Shown here: in pieces, positions 1,387-36,677 of the stretch
Layout of the letters: every line of letters starts with the position of its first letter
How positions within the stretch are numbered: position 1 is the first letter of the stretch
Origin: Candidatus Spechtbacterales bacterium
GTDB lineage: Bacteria > Patescibacteriota > Minisyncoccia > Spechtbacterales > 2-12-FULL-38-22
Reading direction: 5' to 3'
Assembly (NCBI GenBank): GCA_040900345.1
Contig: JBBDZE010000035.1
Coordinates: 20,125 to 57,509, forward strand
DNA: 37,385 nucleotides
Notes under the pieces: model-generated
Told to the model about the DNA's origin: nothing
What the model saw: the letters and a program-made list of their open reading frames with translations, nothing else
Databases searched by the model: none
Translations under genes and position numbers: made by a program

Positions 1387-2877
1387 CTATGCCTCCTTGT
1401 GCTCTGCCATGTATCGGGCCAGCTCCACGAAGAAACGTACACCCGTGCCTTTAGCGCCCTTGGCAAGACGGTCCTGCTCGTTGGCAGTCATGGTGGGAGC
1501 CATATCAATATGCACCCACGGGAAGGAGACAAATTCGCGTAGGAACATAGCACCGGCTGTGGCACCGGCTTTGCCGCTTTTGCCACTGTTGGCTACATCG
1601 CCAAACGTTCCTTTGACATCCTCGGCATATTCTTCCCACATGGGCAGGGGCCACAGATAGTCCCCGCTGCGCTCGCCCAAATCGCGAAACAACTGCTCGC
1701 GCTTTTCGTCTTCCGTAAATAGTGCGTTGACCCGGTCGCCCAATGCCACCAGCGACGCGCCCGTGAGGGTTGCAATGTCTACCACCAGCCGCGGCTTGAA
1801 CCTGCTAGCATAACCCAGCGCGTCGGCCAAAATAATACGACCTTCAGCATCCGTATTTAATACTTCAATGGTTTTGCCTGTAATGGAACGCAGTATGTCC
1901 CCCGGACGATAACTGGAGCCCGAAGGCATGTTCTCTACGGCGGGCACGAGGCCAATCACGTGCAGGGGAATCCCCAAGCGGGCGATAGCGACCATTGCGT
2001 GAATGACCGCCGCCCCACCCGACATGTCCATATGCATTTCATAAATGGCCGGGGTCGGCTTGAGGTTGAGGCCGCCGGTGTCAAAGGTAACCCCCTTGCC
2101 CACCAGCACCAGCGGACGCCCTTTGTATGAACGGTGCTTGTACTCCATCATGATGAACTTGGGCCGGTCGTCGCTTCCCTGGCACACACCAATAACGCCG
2201 CCCATGCCAAGCTTGCGAATGGCGGGCTCATCCAGCACCGTTACCTTCACCTTGGCGGCGCGCCCGACTTTCTGAGCATGCTTGGCCAAGAGCGAGGGCG
2301 TCATATCGCCGCCCGGGGTGTTGGAAAGTAAACGAGTTTGATTGGTCTCTTCACCTACGATTACGCCACGCGCAATAGCTGCCTCGTATTGTTTCTTTTG
2401 CGACGGCGCGAACTTCGCCGCCAAATTAACTTGCGCAATGGTGGGCCAGCCCTCCTTGGGAACCTGTTTGTATTCATTGAATGCCAAGTTGGCCATGAGC
2501 AGTTCCATGGCAATCATCTCTAGAAGGGCCTCGTCTTCCTTTTCCGCACGGATGTCGTCAATGTCCACGGTGGCCTCGGTTACGCGACCCGCCTTCATTT
2601 CTCCCACCATGGCGCGCACCAAAATACGCGCGGCCCGCTGGTTCCAGGCCTCTTTGTTGCCTTTACCCAAAAGCAGCGCCGTGCTACCCGATGGCAAGAA
2701 CAGCGTATGGGATGCGCCTCGCCCTAACGGCGGCTTGTTTGTAAGGAAAAGTTGAATAAGGCCCAAGTCTTCAGGGCCCAGCTGTTTGCCCACATGCGCG
2801 GACACGCCGCCATTTTCAAATAGCGGCAAAATGTAATTCGTACGCTTCTTGTCGAGTGTTACCAGTTGAATTTTCAT
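1387..2877 (-). CDS. pepA: Leucyl aminopeptidase (M17); start moved to MKIQLV
   Basis: KGVTFDTGG, LNLKP, DMSGGA, NTDAEGR, DIATLTGA metal and catalytic motifs. Confidence 0.95.
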   Translation of the reverse strand: MKIQLVTLDKKRTNYILPLFENGGVSAHVGKQLGPEDLGLIQLFLTNKPPLGRGASHTLFLPSGSTALLLGKGNKEAWNQRAARILVRAMVGEMKAGRVTEATVDIDDIRAEKEDEALLEMIAMELLMANLAFNEYKQVPKEGWPTIAQVNLAAKFAPSQKKQYEAAIARGVIVGEETNQTRLLSNTPGGDMTPSLLAKHAQKVGRAAKVKVTVLDEPAIRKLGMGGVIGVCQGSDDRPKFIMMEYKHRSYKGRPLVLVGKGVTFDTGGLNLKPTPAIYEMHMDMSGGAAVIHAMVAIARLGIPLHVIGLVPAVENMPSGSSYRPGDILRSITGKTIEVLNTDAEGRIILADALGYASRFKPRLVVDIATLTGASLVALGDRVNALFTEDEKREQLFRDLGERSGDYLWPLPMWEEYAEDVKGTFGDVANSGKSGKAGATAGAMFLREFVSFPWVHIDMAPTMTANEQDRLAKGAKGTGVRFFVELARYMAEHKEA

Positions 2878-2946
2878 AGAAATATTCGCGTTAGGTGCAC
2901 GAGCAGTGTAGCAAAACACGCAGCGCGATTCAATATATAAACGAAT

Positions 2947-2972
2947 CGAGGGAGCCCCGTAGGGCTCCCTCG
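2947..2972 (-). terminator. Hairpin downstream of the 38-aa ORF
   Basis: CGAGGGAGCCC-cgta-GGGCTCCCTCG. Confidence 0.6.
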
Positions 2973-2998
2973 TGCAAACGGCGCCAATGGGGTTACCA

Positions 2999-3115
2999 TC
3001 AACGCCTCGTGGTCATCCAGCGAGCCAGAACGAACATACCAATAATGAACGCTCCCCAGACGAGCAGGCCGGCAGTTTCGGCAGCGTCGAGCCCTAAAAC
3101 GAGTAAACCGAGCAT
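2999..3115 (-). CDS. 38-aa small membrane protein (not in ORF track)
   Basis: MLGLLVLGLDAAETAGLLVWGAFIIGMFVLARWMTTRR*; SD-like TAGGAGAGAG upstream; hairpin downstream. Confidence 0.6.
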   Translation of the reverse strand: MLGLLVLGLDAAETAGLLVWGAFIIGMFVLARWMTTRR

Positions 3116-3197
3116 GAGTTCTCTCTCCTAAGTCTGCGCCACTCGGTCTGCCTTCCTATACCACAAACCGCACGAAATGCAAGAATGAATGCCCCCA

Positions 3198-3241
3198 CTT
3201 TTATCCTCTATCTCCGCAGCTGCGGAGATAGAGGATAAAAG
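3198..3241. repeat. Perfect 44-bp palindrome in a divergent intergenic region
   Basis: CTTTTATCCTCTATCTCCGCAG|CTGCGGAGATAGAGGATAAAAG. Confidence 0.9.
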
Positions 3242-3309
3242 GATGTAGTTACATTACTTATGCTTTCTTGCATTTCGCCCGCTCCATGCTACACTTGCAC
3301 CCAACAGAT

Positions 3310-4350
3310 ATGTCAATTGTACGCGCGCTTAAAACCCATCTGTCGTCGCTCGTTGTCGGCATTGTTGTCATCGTCCTTATCGCTATTGCGGGCGCTTTTG
3401 CCATACCCGCACTCTTGCAAGGACAAGAAGAGCTCCCCGGCCAACACGGCTTTTTCGTTGAGAACGAGCAATCCATTCAAGAGGAAGATAAGCTGACCAC
3501 CCTGTACTTTGTAGGCGATATGATGCTCACCCGCTCGGTGGGCATTAAAGCGCGCCAAAACGGCGAACCGTGCCGTTGGCCCTTTTTGCAAGTGGCCGAC
3601 TACCTCAAACAAGCCGACATCACGTTCGGCAACTTGGAAACAACCATTTCCGACCGCGGCGTCAACGTGGGCAGCATGTACTCGTTCCGTTCAAACCCGT
3701 GCGTAATGGAGGGCCTCACCCTGGCCGGCTTTGACGCCCTCTCCGTCGCTAATAACCACATAGGCGACTGGTCGCGCGTGGCCATGGAGGACACGTTCAC
3801 CCACTTGCAACAAAATAACATCGCCGTGGTGGGCGGAGGCTTTAGCGAAGAAGAGGCCTACTCAGCCCGCATTCTGGAAGCCAATGGCATGACATTTGCT
3901 TTCCTCGGCTATACCGACCTGGGCGCCCAATATACGCAAGCCAGGGGCGACGTCTCCGGCATTGCCTGGCTCGATAAAGAACGCATGGTAGAGAACATTC
4001 AGGCCGCCAAGCAGGGAGCCGATGTTGTCATTGTCTCCGTGCATATGGGCGTTGAGTACGAGACGACCTCTCGCCCCAACCAGCGCGAAATTGCCCGGGC
4101 CGCCATAGACGCCGGTGCCAAGCTGTTCATTGGGCACCATCCGCACGTCGTACAAGAGACCGAAGAATACCGTGACGGCTTTATCGCCTACAGCTTGGGC
4201 AACTTCGTCTTTGACCAATACTTCTCTGAGGAGACCATGCAAGGCATGCTGTTGGAAGTTGACATGCGGGGTGATGAAATTGTTGACGTCCGCGAGCGCA
4301 TGGTGCAGATCACCCGCGAATACCAGACGCTCCCACCCAGCGACGAATGA
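3310..4350 (+). CDS. CapA/PGA_cap family metallophosphoesterase with N-terminal anchor; start moved to MSIVRA
   Basis: VGDMML, GNLET, ANNHIGD, HMGVEY, GHHPHV, YSLGNFVFDQ. Confidence 0.9.
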   Translation: MSIVRALKTHLSSLVVGIVVIVLIAIAGAFAIPALLQGQEELPGQHGFFVENEQSIQEEDKLTTLYFVGDMMLTRSVGIKARQNGEPCRWPFLQVADYLKQADITFGNLETTISDRGVNVGSMYSFRSNPCVMEGLTLAGFDALSVANNHIGDWSRVAMEDTFTHLQQNNIAVVGGGFSEEEAYSARILEANGMTFAFLGYTDLGAQYTQARGDVSGIAWLDKERMVENIQAAKQGADVVIVSVHMGVEYETTSRPNQREIARAAIDAGAKLFIGHHPHVVQETEEYRDGFIAYSLGNFVFDQYFSEETMQGMLLEVDMRGDEIVDVRERMVQITREYQTLPPSDE

Positions 4351-15971: not shown

Positions 15972-16007
15972 GAAAACGGCCTCCGCATTTATGCGGAGGC
16001 CGTTTTC
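15972..16007 (-). terminator. Intrinsic terminator after the interrupted surface-protein gene
   Basis: GAAAACGGCCTCCGCAT-tt-ATGCGGAGGCCGTTTTC. Confidence 0.8.
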
Positions 16008-16020
16008 CATTTGAAGGCCC

Positions 16021-18696
16021 CTACTCTATCCGCTCGCCTTCAGGATAGCTGTTAAACTCCGTAGAGTTGACCGGCACAATGTAGAGCGTCCCCATGCCCA
16101 AGCTTGCCAAGGCATTCCAGGAGGTCACCCAGCGCTTCACGCCGTGGTCAATAAGGTACACCTCCGGCGAATTGCCATGGCGAACCAGCAAGCTATCGGG
16201 GTACATCTCAAGGAGCGAGGGCCATACTAATACGACATCTTCCCATCGATTGCCATACGAGTTGAATGTCTCCGGATTCGGAATATGGTGCTTCCGTCCG
16301 TGACGGTTCAGGTAATAGACCTCCCCGCTAAAACTGCTTACCAAATCGGCCGTATGGTAAGCATCAACTTCACGTGCTGGCAGCACCATCACATCGCTAA
16401 ACGAGAATCCGCGATCGCGGAACGCGCTCGCCGTTGGAATCCATAGTTTTCGCTCCCCGATAAGGTAGTAGACGGAAGGAGAATTCTCTGCACGAATGAG
16501 GCTCGTTTGCTGGAAACTTTGGACTACCGCAAATGATACCTCCTCAATGTCGCCCCAACGGAACCCCGACTCATTGAATACTTGGGGGCTTGGAATCCAG
16601 CGCGCCAGTCCATCCTTTACGGCATATACGGTTCCTTGCTCGGCCTGGATAAGGCGTAGGTCGGCGGGCAAGGTGCCAGAGTCGACAATGTTCAGGATCG
16701 GGTCGCGCAACGAGGAGGACGTGGCCGCGCCCACCGAAATTTCAAGGCGGTAGTCGCCGGCCGGAATATGCTCGGGAATTGTGAGCGAGAATGAAGTGCC
16801 GGTCGTAGCACCCTGGCGCAGCACGACCGGCGGATAGCTACGAATGGAAAGTAGCCGGATGGAAAGCGTTCCGCTGGTTGCGCCACCCAACACCCGCCAA
16901 CGGAAAGTGTAGTTCTTGCCCTTTTCAAGGGTTGCGCCTGGCTCCGGGGCCAGAATGTCCACCATGGGCAGAGTGCCAACATAGCGCTCGTCGGCATAGA
17001 AGTTGTTGGCCGTGTTGACCTCTCGATTGGAGGTATCAATAACCCGCGCCTCACCGGCATATAACCCGGCTTGCGGAACTTTAATCTCGTCAAAACTACT
17101 CCCGCCGAAGGTTACCGTACGGCATTCGCCAGATGCAAATGCGAGGCTCGTCGGCGCCAGCACCACTGCCCGAGCTAACGAGTAGAGGTGGTTCTGATTG
17201 CCGACCGTTCGAAAGTCCGACGTGAAAACTGCTCAATTCATTACTGACAAAAAACAGATTCTTGATAAACTAAATGAGCTGCGGTATACTAAAGATGAAC
17301 TACTAAGTCAACTAAAAGATGTCAAACTTAGCGAAAAGTCAAGAAGAAAAGCAGTTGCTTTCCGAGAGTCAGTTAGACGAGGAGGATCAAAAGAACCTTC
17401 AAGATTATTTGGAGGAAGCAGAGCAGTTGGAAAAGTAACTGAAAGCCAGCCAATTAAGGGTGGGTTACTAACACCTGGACAAAAGGTTGGTTTTTTTGCT
17501 GAAAAAAAAGCGGTAGGGGAAGCGCAAAGTGCCACAAGAGGTGTGGCAAGGGCAACAGACGATGTTGCACAAGGCGTTGCGTCAAAGGTGGGCGAAGCGA
17601 CAACTAACGGTCTCGATACATCTCTAATTCGGAAGAGTAAGGAGCAGGTTCAGAGTATTCTACAGACCGTTGGGAAAAGACTCCCAATAAGAAGCCGAGT
17701 AGGAGGAGAAACAGCCCAAGAATTGCAGCGGAGCGAGATTCTTTCTTCATTGCCCCCATTAAACAGAAAAACGAAAACGGAGTCAATAGCCAGAGAGTAC
17801 GCAGAGTACAAAAAGGCGACCGAGGGTATTCGCGGTGTTTGGATAAATATAAGAGAGACGGTGCAGGACAGTTTCATTCGCGCGAGAAAATTACAGGAGA
17901 AGGTAGTCCGGGGTGCGGACATACCAGACGATATAAACATAGACCAAGCCCGTACATTGTTTGACGGCAGGGTTGACGCAAGACTTCGGGCGGCAAAAGA
18001 ATCGGTAACAAAAATAGACCAGTCCATTCTTTCTACTGCAAGGAAGCTGGGCGTTGCTGATAACGAGTTGAGTAGGGAGGTTGATAGCTTTTTGCACGCA
18101 AGACACGCCCTAGAGCGAAACGCGAGGCTTGGCGACGGAGCCGCTGGCCTCAAAAATCAAGAAGCGAAACAGATTTTGAAGGCAATTGAAAGCTCGCCCC
18201 ACCAAGCGGAGGTAAAAATAATAGCCGAGGGTATCTCTGAACTAAACCGCAAAACCCTAAAGACTCTTTTAGACGCAGAGGTCATTGATAAAGAGTTGTT
18301 TGACCTGCTCAACAAGACGTATAAAAATCACGTTCCTCTTCAGCGCGTTTTAGATGAGTCAGAAGACATAGCGCAATCTCTAACGGGGAGGGGGCTTGAT
18401 GTGCGTTCAACCGGGTTGCGAAAGGCGGTAGGTTCCGACAGGCCTATTGCCGACATTCTTACGAATGTTACTGCCAATCTTGACCAAGCAATTATTAGGG
18501 CGGAGAAGAACTTGGTTGACTTAACGACGCTTCGGTTTGCCCGTGCGAATAAGCACTTGGGTATTTTTGAGGAAGTAAAGCCGAAGGTTATAGGAAAAAC
18601 GGGGGATGGTCCTTCCTGCGCCGATGCGCCGGGCACGCTCGCAAGAAACGCGGCACCAAGAACCAACGCGCCAATCAGTACAAGATATCGAGTCAT
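16021..18696 (-). pseudogene. Secreted surface protein (signal peptide, CARDB/Ig-like domains, four ~52-aa C-terminal repeats) interrupted by a 1371-bp insert
   Basis: Signal peptide MTRYLVLIGALVLGAAFLASVPGASA starting at 18696; deleting 17230-18600 joins ..EGPSPV|FTSDFRTVGNQNHL.. in frame with 16021..17166 (434 aa); repeats VY.....K..IP....F...G..W. Confidence 0.8.
17230..18600 (+). mobile_element. Inserted foreign fragment: internal part of a phage-like large helical protein gene, bounded by AAAAC direct repeats
   Basis: Stop-free + frame across the whole insert; lower GC (21/60 in line 17281 vs 39/60 in line 17101); AAAAC at 17225-17229 and 18596-18600; FLHARHALERN and YKNHVPLQR resemble phage large polyvalent/internal virion proteins. 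Confidence 0.7.
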
Positions 18697-18765
18697 AACG
18701 AATGTCCGCAGACAGTTACTTCACTTTGTCCCACTATACGCTTTCTTTCTGATTCGCCAAGTTCA

Positions 18766-19245
18766 TTACTTCCTTTTTACCAGCACCGTCGTTGCCGAAG
18801 ACAAAAGGCCGCCCGCTAGGCCCAAGGCCATGTCCAGCATCGTGTCGGGCAAGCCTTCCTGGAAGGAAAGGCTACGCCGGCCCAAATCTTCAAATGCCTC
18901 TCCAAAAATACCTGGCAGCGGAAAACCAAACTCGCGCGACAGCGCGTAGAGGTTATCAGCAGAAAATTCAAAAAACTCCCACAGCGTGGCGGCCAGCGCT
19001 GTCATGGCAACGGCAAACAACACCACGAACCACCAGGGCAACGCGGGAAGCTTACGCTTGCGCTGCAAAGTGCGAATGAACAGAACGGCCGCAATACCAA
19101 TGCTGATGCCTCCGGCCGTATGCATGGGAATATCAAAACTCGGGTAGGCACGATAAATGCCCACAACGTAGGCCATCACCAAGTGGACGGCCAGTACGCC
19201 CGTGGGCACTACCAAAATATTCGCAAGTTCGCGCCGTGCCAGCAT
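18766..19245 (-). CDS. Integral membrane protein (DUF2238/VanZ-like)
   Basis: DIPMHTAGG, LWEFFEF, DTMLDMALG; 4 TM. Confidence 0.75.
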   Translation of the reverse strand: MLARRELANILVVPTGVLAVHLVMAYVVGIYRAYPSFDIPMHTAGGISIGIAAVLFIRTLQRKRKLPALPWWFVVLFAVAMTALAATLWEFFEFSADNLYALSREFGFPLPGIFGEAFEDLGRRSLSFQEGLPDTMLDMALGLAGGLLSSATTVLVKRK

Positions 19246-19274
19246 TATTCAGAGATACCGCAGAAGCGGAACCA

Positions 19275-19517
19275 CTACTTCGCCTTTGAGCTCAACTTGT
19301 AGCCGCGCCATCCCATGTAGCCAGCCACAACGACTGCAACAATGCTCACCCAAGGCGGAACAGACCACTCGCCGATGCGAACGTCCGTGTCATACAGAAT
19401 GCGCAAGGCGTGCATGGTCGCGACCAACAGAAAAAGTCCGGCCGCAGCTACCAAATAGTCATGTTCGCCGCGCAGTCCGGAAGAGCGAAAGCTTCGATGC
19501 TTTTGCTTACGTGCCAT
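19275..19517 (-). CDS. Small two-TM hypothetical protein
   Basis: LFLLVATMHALR..W.VP.WVS; TGnTATACT upstream. Confidence 0.75.
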   Translation of the reverse strand: MARKQKHRSFRSSGLRGEHDYLVAAAGLFLLVATMHALRILYDTDVRIGEWSVPPWVSIVAVVVAGYMGWRGYKLSSKAK

Positions 19518-19585
19518 TTCAATAGATTAAGTATAACACCTTATAGTATACCACTTGGCAAGAGTGAATGTTTTCCCCATCGTAT

Positions 19586-19640
19586 GCAGTTCTATACAAG
19601 AAAACTCCCACTATGTGAGAGTTTTCTTGTATAGAACTGC
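19586..19640 (-). terminator. Long hairpin terminator after the H1-like gene
   Basis: 22-bp arms GCAGTTCTATACAAGAAAACTC / GAGTTTTCTTGTATAGAACTGC. Confidence 0.75.
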
Positions 19641-19646
19641 TTGGCG

Positions 19647-19808
19647 CTATCGCTTGCGCGCGGCTGTTCGCTTCTTCGCGGGCTTTTTGGCGGCCGTCTT
19701 GCGTACCGTTCGCTTCACGGCTTTCTTCGCCGGCCGCTTTGCGGCCGTCTTTTTTGCAGCCGGCCTCTTGGCCGTTCGTTTCTTCACTGCAGGTTTTTTG
19801 GTTGCCAT
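19647..19808 (-). CDS. 53-aa histone H1-like Lys/Arg/Ala/Pro-rich protein (not in ORF track)
   Basis: MATKKPAVKKRTAKRPAAKKTAAKRPAKKAVKRTVRKTAAKKPAKKRTAARKR*. Confidence 0.85.
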   Translation of the reverse strand: MATKKPAVKKRTAKRPAAKKTAAKRPAKKAVKRTVRKTAAKKPAKKRTAARKR

Positions 19809-19819
19809 GTGTGATTGTT

Positions 19820-19998
19820 CCCGCCCGCAACGCTAAAGCGTAGCTTTGGCGGGCGCGGCGCTTCGCTCACACCAGAGTTTAGGTTTTAGTCCGCCTCCGC
19901 CGGTTGGCGGATGGCGGGTAGGTTTTAGGGAGGACTGCATTCGCCCTCTGCAACCTATTGCCTACTACTTAGAACCTAACATTAGCGAGCGCAGCGAG
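19820..19998. repeat. Mosaic of REP-like palindromes and inverted heptamer repeats
   Basis: CCGCCCGC..GCTAAAGC.TAGCTTTGGCGGGCG; nested CCGCC[TCCGCCggttGGCGGA]TGGCGG; TTTAGG and ACCTA 7-mers; GCGAGCGCAGCGAG. Confidence 0.55.
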
Positions 19999-20493: not shown

Positions 20494-21258
20494 CTACCCC
20501 GTCCCTCCCAGTACGTCGGCTGCCGCCTCGCGATAGGCACAGTAGTCACAACGGTTGCTGGCGGGGGGCGTCTCCTCGGCCATCAAACATTCATGGGCGC
20601 GGGTGAGCGCGCCTTCCACCCATGAGTCGTCGCCCTCGTGAGCAATAAGGGTAATATCAAACTCAATTCTGCCGTCGAACGCTGCCGCATCCGTACGACC
20701 GTTGCAGTACACAAAGTATCCCGTGTTGGAAACCGGCAATTCATTTTTGCGCAGCAGCCACTGGTACATTTCCATTTGCCGTTTGTACCCGTCCTGCCAG
20801 GCCTTATCCAGCGCAGTAATTACCTCGTTCTTGCTGGTGGCCTTGTAATCCACCACGATATACTTCCCATCCGAGTCCTGCCACAAATCATCAATGGCAC
20901 CGGAAAATATGAAGTTCGTGGGCTCGTGCAGATATTCTACGCCTTGGAAGTTTTCCCGCCACACGTTCAGCTTGTCGTGGGGTACGGGACGCGCGTCCAC
21001 GCCGTATTGGGCAATGAGAGGATGGGGAGTGCCATTTGTCCGGTGAATATCAAACTCTTTTTTCAACAACGTGTCCACCGCAGAGTTGAGGTTAAAGGGA
21101 AACCCCGGCGGCCGCCCCACCCCCAAGCGACGGTCCATATAAAAACAGCGGGGGCACTCCATAAAAAGCTCCACCTTGGAACGGCTCAGCTTGAACGGCT
21201 TACTGCCGGCCGGGTCAAATATATTGCGGGTGCGTTTGGGATTGTAGTAGTCGCTCAT
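20494..21258 (-). CDS. PD-(D/E)XK nuclease family protein (RecB/Cas4-like)
   Basis: LSRSK..CPRCFY, GAIDD, VVDYK, QMEMY, CDYC. Confidence 0.9.
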   Translation of the reverse strand: MSDYYNPKRTRNIFDPAGSKPFKLSRSKVELFMECPRCFYMDRRLGVGRPPGFPFNLNSAVDTLLKKEFDIHRTNGTPHPLIAQYGVDARPVPHDKLNVWRENFQGVEYLHEPTNFIFSGAIDDLWQDSDGKYIVVDYKATSKNEVITALDKAWQDGYKRQMEMYQWLLRKNELPVSNTGYFVYCNGRTDAAAFDGRIEFDITLIAHEGDDSWVEGALTRAHECLMAEETPPASNRCDYCAYREAAADVLGGTG

Positions 21259-28260: not shown

Positions 28261-28578
28261 CTAAACGGCTAGATAGCGACAGAAATGACAAGCCCCCGCC
28301 CGCTCCAACTCATCCATATACCGCACGACTGTGCGGTCCGTTACGCCCAACTCATCCCGAATGTCGGCATTTGAAAGCTCGGGGTTCTGCGCGAAAAGCT
28401 CCATTATTTTTTGCTTGTTCGCATTCTTGCGAATGGTCTGATCCATAGCCGCCCGACACATCCCCGAAAGTTCTTGGGCAGTTGAAGTCCCGCGCTTTTG
28501 TGCCCCCCGCCGCGCCAGCCACAAAACCGCGGCCGCTGCGGTAATTATGGTGATGAGAATGTATGGGAAGGGGTTCAT
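28261..28578 (-). CDS. TM-anchored winged-helix protein, apparently 3'-truncated
   Basis: KIMELF..LSNADIRDELGVTDRTVVRYMDELE; the last ~10 codons are read from repeat B and the wing strands are absent. Confidence 0.7.
   Translation of the reverse strand: MNPFPYILITIITAAAAVLWLARRGAQKRGTSTAQELSGMCRAAMDQTIRKNANKQKIMELFAQNPELSNADIRDELGVTDRTVVRYMDELERAGACHFCRYLAV
28262..28297. repeat. Copy B of the 36-bp imperfect direct repeat
   Basis: TAAACGGCTAGATAGCGACAGAAATGACAAGCCCCC. Confidence 0.85.
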
Positions 28579-36614: not shown

Positions 36615-36677
36615 CCCTAGAACCTAGCCCCTAGCAACTAGAACCTAGTGCCTATCACCTAAAACCTAACACCTAAT
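36615..36677. repeat. Nine degenerate tandem heptamers (consensus nCCTARn) at the island edge
   Basis: CCCTAGA ACCTAGC CCCTAGC AACTAGA ACCTAGT GCCTATC ACCTAAA ACCTAAC ACCTAAT. Confidence 0.8.

Follow-up and report, generated by a model that had tools for sequence, protein, structure and literature searches.

An interior fragment of a phage polyvalent-protein gene interrupting a signal-peptide-bearing gene in a Candidatus Spechtbacterales genome

The window analysed here is a stretch of 37,385 nucleotides from the forward strand of contig JBBDZE010000035.1 (positions 20,125 to 57,509; assembly GCA_040900345.1) of a Candidatus Spechtbacterales bacterium. The contig measures 57.5 kb and belongs to a metagenome bin of 35 contigs and 659 kb that is 94.8% complete; genomes of the same class have sizes of 0.5–1.2 Mb. 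These sizes and, as a lead only, the candidate-phylum taxa of the nearest Atlas clusters agree with a bacterium of the candidate-phyla-radiation type. On the minus strand of the window, a gene with a putative signal peptide was split by a segment from within a phage gene that encodes a large polyvalent protein, and the pentanucleotide AAAAC was present at both borders (Table 1). The two copies were 1371 bases apart, start to start, on the plus strand. When the insert was deleted in silico, a single AAAAC remained and the minus-strand open reading frame (ORF) starting at 18696 ran without interruption into the ORF 16021–17166, forming one frame of 434 aa. An earlier reading of the same DNA, made from the sequence alone and called here the original prediction, had described an insert of this length between AAAAC repeats, the in-frame rejoining on its removal and the clean interruption of a signal-peptide-bearing gene; the 434-aa frame agrees with all three. 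As the locus stands, the minus-strand ORF from 18696 enters the insert and stops after 118 residues, the signal-peptide part continuing through 84 antisense codons up to the stop. The 381-aa ORF 16021–17166, which is in the same genomic frame as the ORF from 18696, is left without an export signal. On the plus strand, the 583-aa ORF that covers the insert was a chimera, as originally described, with phage-like sequence in residues 12–468 and a 116-aa tail devoid of similarity of its own.

The insert differed in composition from its surroundings. The GC content was 46.1% in the insert, 52.2% in the rest of the window and 54.0% in the genome, which placed the insert within the lowest 2.2% of 6126 genome windows of equal length. 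Its plus strand was rich in purines (33% A and 27% G), with 23% A in the flanks, whose genes are encoded on the minus strand and which are for this reason C-rich on the plus strand. Of the six frames of the insert, one on the plus strand (17231–18598) showed no stop in 456 codons and each of the other five had 6–34, so that the low GC content, the abundance of A and the stop-free plus strand noted originally were all found again. The open frame did not contain a single ATG, with about nine expected, by our own estimate, at a typical methionine content. The sole start of the plus-strand ORF was a TTG placed immediately behind a stop codon. A scan of GC content as a means of finding further foreign pieces returned 33 low-GC segments and was discarded as too unspecific.

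The region 16900–19000 contained 20 inverted pairs, none of which corresponded to inverted repeats at the insert ends. Recombinase, transposase and integrase domains were absent from the 22 window ORFs covered by the Pfam scan (the window has 56 with a length of 120 aa or more), and comparison of the insert itself with Pfam, NCBIfam and PHROGs gave no transposase. The lack of an own start, stop, terminal inverted repeats and recombinase, as originally described, therefore stood in the scans made. As regards an insertion sequence, terminal inverted repeats and a transposase were missing and a 5-bp direct repeat was present, its right copy coinciding with conserved K-T codons. As regards a prophage or an integrative element, the window contained no tRNA, the scanned ORFs no integrase, and the foreign DNA consisted of a single gene fragment. 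An 11-nt exact repeat at 17104 and 18580 was dismissed, about 0.5 such repeats being expected by chance according to our estimate.

Table 1. Features of the interrupted gene and of the insert, in positions of the window.
Feature	Position	Strand	Description
Left AAAAC	17225..17229		Host sequence; encodes V-F of the rejoined host protein on the minus strand; outside the phage homology
Right AAAAC	18596..18600		Within the G-K-T codons of the phage frame; probably donor-derived microhomology at the joint
Insert	17230..18600	+	1371 bp, 457 codons, without start or stop; interior fragment of an LPD38-associated polyvalent-protein gene; antisense to the host gene
Chimeric ORF, 583 aa	17198..18949	+	11 host-antisense codons, then the fragment, then 116 host-antisense codons; probably not a gene
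Host gene, 5' end	18601..18696	-	Start codon and Sec-type signal peptide, by inspection; segment unique in the genome
Host gene, remainder	16021..17229	-	Orphan N-terminal region, weak Ig-like match, C-terminal repeats of about 50 aa; separated from the signal peptide
Promoter-like site	18733..18760	-	Located upstream of the host start codon; TTGGCG and TATAGT with a 16-nt spacer between them; consensus match at 9 of 12 positions

Portions of the window were present in three sequencing runs of one study, X1, X2 and X3 (samples S1–S3), X1 possibly being the source sample of the window assembly. The evidence from the runs consisted of Logan contigs built at k=31, each with one flat depth value, which do not resolve minor alleles or local depth. 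In X1, one contig of 3872 bp spanned positions 15973–19844 with no difference and included both junctions. Its depth was 11.4, and the flanking contigs had depths of 12.2 and 12.0. In X2, two 151-bp pieces of the insert (17316–17614, no differences) were found at depth 2, the host flanks being at 2.3–5.4. Since an independent contig passes through both junctions at the depth of the flanks, an assembly chimera, which the original prediction wanted excluded first, is unlikely. The unbroken junction contig would also suggest that any identical free phage sequence in X1 was too scarce to cause branching of the graph at the ends of the insert.

The phage origin of the insert was apparent from its 456-aa translation, which matched only the interiors of PHROGs 14770, 10691, 616 and 9854 (profiles of 1636–3925 positions; E-values from 4e-20 to 4.5e-8). 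A search against longer proteins yielded 68 homologues at E ≤ 0.001, with lengths of 961–2258 aa, and 65 of them contained PF18857 (LPD38), in line with the resemblance to the middle of a large LPD38-associated polyvalent protein that had been noticed originally. The top homologue was aligned over residues 535–854 of a 1625-aa protein with 67% identity (E 4.9e-124). The first 52 residues of the fragment showed 63% identity to residues 463–514 of another homologue, P0065, where they follow a Zeta_toxin domain. The translation itself did not match PF18857 at E ≤ 0.1, and Pfam and NCBIfam gave nothing meaningful for it. In the homologues P0001 and P0003 the LPD38 domain occupied residues 1298–1490 and 911–1104, about 450 and 280 residues, respectively, downstream of the part aligned with the fragment. 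Since the domain lies well downstream, the fragment is a mid-gene piece without the domain that gives the family its name. In annotated collections the family was overwhelmingly one of phages, with matches in 332 of 50,697 phage records and in 5 of 72,556 plasmid records, where each of the five plasmids was predicted to be non-mobilizable; in Ruegeria phage 45A6 the match was inside an 11.7-kb gene. Iyer and colleagues (PMC5512222) describe polyvalent proteins as proteins of phages and conjugative elements that are injected along with the DNA. According to a preprint of 2026, the virions of phi24B contain a 2811-aa protein with LPD5, LPD1 and LPD38, for which a role as an ejection protein was proposed (bioRxiv 10.64898/2026.04.10.717836).

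The insert was present as a single copy in the 659-kb genome, and tblastn with all 68 full-length homologues revealed no other piece of an LPD38-associated gene there. The homology was cut at both joints, the neighbouring genes were ordinary host genes and no other part of the gene was present in the genome; the insert is therefore a fragment of such a gene and not a member gene of the family. Distant matches, with 26–27% identity, occurred in only two of 400 further genomes of the class. They were located in very long open frames of 1826 and 1918 aa (G001:C3:19287-19757 and G124:C20:141861-142355), which may be full-length polyvalent-protein genes of elements integrated in these small genomes. 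The donor phage was not found: viral contigs gave one match with 40% identity, and in species genomes no relative was confirmed. Contigs of 313 and 616 bp from X1 and X2 matched 32–60 bases of the insert at 17692–17763, with 2–7 differences and unlike sequence on both sides, and are probably from related phage genes in the same habitat.

The interrupted gene probably encodes a secreted repeat protein of the cell surface. When the translation was inspected by eye, its first 26 residues had the appearance of a signal peptide, with a basic N-terminus, a hydrophobic core of 16 residues and the motif A-S-A|Q. The Pfam matches of the host protein were a borderline one to the Ig-like Kre9_KNH (24.3 bits, for a cut-off of 24.6) and a weaker one to NPCBM_assoc; the CARDB label given earlier was not confirmed, with no CARDB match at E ≤ 0.1. 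The C-terminal repeats were matched in the genomes of 33 of 60 relatives with up to 43% identity, and in a paralogue of the same genome (G000) with up to 46%. For the N-terminal 200 residues, no relative other than the protein itself was present among the candidates scored. No intact allele or orthologue was found: the 60 relatives matched the C-terminal repeats only, and the 30-mer of the right flank was absent from metagenome contigs. The neighbouring gene showed no usable synteny across seven genomes of the family. Six promoter-like sites were counted in the region, with 1.5 expected from shuffles; the putative promoter listed in Table 1, if active, would transcribe the insert in antisense. 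The insertion was most likely a knock-out of this gene.

The two joints had different properties. On the left, the phage homology began at the first full codon of the insert, as seen with P0065, the residues before it were unlike P0065, and no homology between donor and host was visible at the joint. On the right, the homology ended at G-K-T, a point reached by the alignments of P0002, P0003 and P0005. Within the 13 residues behind an anchor motif, 13 of 62 homologues had G-K-T, 21 had G-[KRE]-T and 40 had G-[KR]. The next host codons past the right joint (G-D-G) resembled F-D-G, common in the family, and on the basis of the protein consensus the likeness could represent a longer, imperfect match between the two sequences. 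Alignments extending up to 63 residues beyond the joint were rejected as extension noise, since the best match of the 116-residue tail searched alone had an E-value of 0.45, at unrelated positions. A stop-free antisense tail of such a length exists in about 6% of comparable genome windows. The right AAAAC thus falls on residues that the homologues carry, which favours a donor-derived copy and joining by microhomology over a target-site duplication; the right copy is probably donor DNA. From the original proposal of a capture either at a staggered cut or by microhomology, the second possibility is retained on the strength of the G-K/R-T codons at the right AAAAC, and the first is disfavoured.

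We propose, with a probability of roughly 0.6, that the interior of a phage virion-protein gene was recently captured without a recombinase in the gene of a secreted protein, the right joint being made by AAAAC microhomology. In this model, a linear 1.37-kb interior piece of the gene of an LPD38-associated, virion-packaged polyvalent protein would have been present in the cell. The piece would have been joined into a break of the secreted-protein gene, 12 codons past the presumed A-S-A|Q cleavage motif, and at the right joint the donor's own AAAAC, inside the G-K-T codons, would have paired with the AAAAC of the host. The joining could have occurred through microhomology-mediated end joining independent of Ku, or by double illegitimate recombination of incoming DNA. 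As a result the host gene would be knocked out and the mature part of its product left without export signal. Joining independent of Ku is suggested because no Ku/LigD system was detectable in the host: searches of the 94.8%-complete genome returned neither Ku nor ATP-dependent ligase, and control genomes gave matches. The lack of a dedicated recombinase in the scanned ORFs, the lack of mobile-element ends and the apparent independence from Ku and LigD are features of a microhomology-mediated illegitimate insertion. Five bases are shared at the right joint, their donor origin being deduced from the homologues, and none at the left joint. The open frame, with no stop in 456 codons, and the unameliorated GC content argue for a recent event. 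The pathway of repair would be one of those named, and a selective benefit, for example the loss of a phage receptor, may have followed.

Several observations weigh against this proposal. The sole ComEC match of the genome (Competence, PF03772; G000:C27:17014-17727) had one TAA inside it, and the uptake channel may be split or broken; DNA uptake is for this reason uncertain as the route of entry. As no intact allele or orthologue was found, host bases could have been lost at the joints in multiples of three. The AAAAC of the donor is read from the protein consensus alone, given that no donor was found and that the top relative is 67% identical, and the exact G-K-T occurs in only 13 of the 62 homologues. 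A staggered enzymatic cut would likewise leave a 5-bp direct repeat on the two sides of the insert. If X1 is the source sample of the window, the agreement of its contig is a test of the assembler rather than of the DNA, and contigs with one flat depth each may hide minor alleles. The last observation comes from X3, where a contig of 269 bp with depth 2 was exactly identical to positions 18595–18753 and continued with 110 nt corresponding neither to the insert nor to the empty site, which would not be expected from one clean event.

Since the flank contained in the X3 contig is unique in the genome, the contig represents the same locus in a close strain. The presence of such a strain in this sample follows from another piece found in X3, which corresponded to the host gene body (16170–16320) with one difference. 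Thirty letters of the 110 nt were examined, and their GC content was 40% by our own count. Read in the host frame, the foreign letters produced a stop directly behind V-F at the joint. These 30 letters were absent from the window, from its own genome and from viral, metagenome and genome contig collections. Tested against shuffles, their similarity to the insert was not significant (p = 0.40 and 0.50), and they bore no likeness to the C-termini of the homologues. A similarity of codons to the insert end, seen by eye, was rejected (p = 0.40 against shuffles). A chimeric library fragment broken at exactly this base is improbable. The contig could come from a longer insertion trimmed between AAAAAC repeats, from a second capture at a fragile A4-C-G5 sequence or from another rearrangement, and the history of the insertion may comprise more than one simple event.

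It is accordingly conceivable, and in our view rather unlikely, that the insert is the remnant of a longer or compound insertion, or that the site was struck repeatedly. In the first version, the X3 allele would retain the right end of the longer insertion and the lineage of the window would have deleted the rest between an internal AAAAAC and the terminal one. In the second version, the boundary of the A4-C-G5 runs would be fragile and would have received different foreign DNAs independently. Both are consistent with a contig that shares the flank without any difference and switches to other sequence exactly at the insert boundary, with a foreign part that likewise ends in an A-run plus C and is found in none of the three public collections, with the close strain indicated by the gene-body piece, and with the original target context, AAAAC then GGGGG, retained at the right joint. 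The evidence for them is nevertheless one contig of depth 2 in one run, showing neither the left joint nor the insert, of whose 110 foreign letters only the 30 without significant similarity to the insert or the homologue C-termini were examined. Should the X3 allele prove genuine, foreign DNA would have a natural hot spot of capture here.

An enzyme making cuts with a 5-base stagger, such as a transposase or an integrase acting in trans on a stray fragment, is distinctly unlikely as the cause of the insertion. Both AAAAC copies would then be a duplication of host sequence and the inserted DNA would measure 1366 bp. Duplications of 5 bp are typical for several DDE transposases, including that of phage Mu, and the perfect direct repeats around the insert, with no host base apparently lost, would agree with such a reaction. 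Against it, terminal inverted repeats are lacking, both ends are inside coding sequence, the right one in the middle of a conserved module, and none of the 22 scanned ORFs encodes a transposase or integrase. Moreover, a duplicate of host sequence would by coincidence have to restore the K-T of a position where G-[KRE]-T is present in 21 of 62 homologues.

A more far-reaching version of repeated capture would make the boundary AAAAC|GGGGG a recurrent capture site, with at least two different foreign DNAs, that of the window and that of the X3 contig, adjoining one host base in two samples. Fragments could pile up there since the target context survives at the right joint, and they would be transcribed in antisense from the host promoter, forming a record of phage DNA made without Cas proteins that at the same time removes a surface protein. 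We regard this as very unlikely, and nothing found here speaks for the CRISPR-independent memory that was originally speculated on. It is also extremely unlikely that the fragment was kept because it is useful, either as antisense RNA against the mRNA of the virion protein or through the 583-aa ORF as a truncated decoy of the phage protein. The orientation of the insert, antisense to the promoter-like site 18733–18760, and the intact plus-strand frame would suit such a use. Other defences could be valuable to this host, since no CRISPR-like array was found in the window and the best Cas1 match of the genome was below the cut-off (20.3 bits for 22.3, over 53 positions). However, any recent insertion would have its frame intact, the plus-strand frame has no ATG in 456 codons and its ORF only a TTG right behind a stop codon as a start, the open tail is unremarkable, and the case stands alone, no second fragment of this kind being present in the genome. 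The fragment itself is probably without function. That an assembly or library artefact joined phage and host reads is scarcely credible in spite of the 35-contig metagenome bin, the deviating GC content of the insert and the possible identity of X1 with the source sample, since graph mis-joins require shared k-mers where only five bases are shared, the host gene would have to be left and re-entered at the same base and in frame, the X1 contig passes through both joints at the flat depth of its flanks, and the X2 insert pieces are at low depth like the host flanks.

The capture that we propose would belong to a known process, illegitimate recombination, of which it would be a well-resolved natural case in an unusual host. 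The uptake of non-homologous DNA guided by microhomology has been measured in few laboratory bacteria, at very low rates. In Acinetobacter baylyi, Hulter and Wackernagel reportedly described in 2008 how foreign DNA undergoes double illegitimate recombination when cells are naturally transformed, the DNA being joined at microhomologies of a few bases. The resemblance lies in the kilobase scale of the non-homologous foreign DNA, in the microhomology of few bases and in the absence of a recombinase or of mobile-element ends. Here, in contrast, the event is natural, the host is an uncultured bacterium with a small genome and the donor is an internal fragment of a phage gene; the microhomology exists at one joint only and no host sequence was apparently replaced. 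In Escherichia coli, Chayot and co-workers reportedly observed in 2010 an alternative, microhomology-mediated end joining independent of Ku that typically deletes sequence around the break. It likewise uses short identities without Ku or LigD, neither Ku nor ATP-dependent ligase being matched here, but the present event captured a 1.37-kb filler with no apparent loss. Ku-independent end joining in E. coli is also cited in PMC12426944. In SPDIR, the short-patch form of double illegitimate recombination, ectopic DNA similarly anneals at microhomologies and enters the chromosome, and the outcome differs in that microindels arise from patches far shorter than the 1371 bp found here. In eukaryotic filler-DNA capture, such as the insertion of mitochondrial DNA (NUMT; PMC2567098), unrelated DNA present in the cell patches a break, and the joints have short homology or none; here the filler is of phage origin and the host is a bacterium in which no genes of classical non-homologous end joining were found.

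Two other systems are less close. CRISPR spacer acquisition also stores a piece of phage DNA in the host chromosome. A spacer has tens of bases and is placed between repeats, whereas the insert has 1371 bp and is placed inside a gene; moreover, the window has no array, the genome has no Cas1 above the cut-off, and the nearby PD-(D/E)XK nuclease reached 30.3 bits where the Cas4 cut-off is 65. The elements of the Mu and Tn3 families produce target duplications of 5 bp, and a 5-bp direct repeat around an insert that disrupts a gene is similar. They differ from the present case by their inverted ends and transposase, neither of which was found here, where both ends are within one much larger coding sequence.

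Clean natural cases that leave the two joints, the donor family and the disrupted target legible are seldom documented, which is not to claim that none is in print. The present example comes from an uncultured bacterium whose 0.66-Mb genome yielded neither Ku nor ATP-dependent ligase. The combination of a phage virion-protein donor and a secreted target, probably located at the cell surface, would fit a selection by phages for the loss of a receptor.

The genes within about 10 kb of the insert were ordinary. They encoded a metallopeptidase, a NUDIX protein, a CAP-domain protein, an ECF-type sigma factor, a DNA glycosylase, a P-type ATPase, a glucose/sorbosone dehydrogenase, a mannosyltransferase-like protein and a PD-(D/E)XK nuclease. 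The nuclease gene (20494–21258, minus strand) was 1.9 kb from the insert and its product matched PDDEXK_1 with an E-value of 6e-16. Farther to the right, from position 28500 to the contig end at 37385, the window contained the stretch of lowest GC content of the genome (37–44%, compared with 54%). This island encodes a DUF2779 protein, a CYTH protein and a 1605-aa protein in which an SF1 helicase (AAA_11/AAA_12) is fused to an endonuclease of the MTES_1575/DUF559 type. The island appears to have been acquired horizontally and is possibly related to defence. A short tandem repeat with a period of 14 or 21 and about 3–4 copies was located at 36616–36675, between the last two ORFs of the island.

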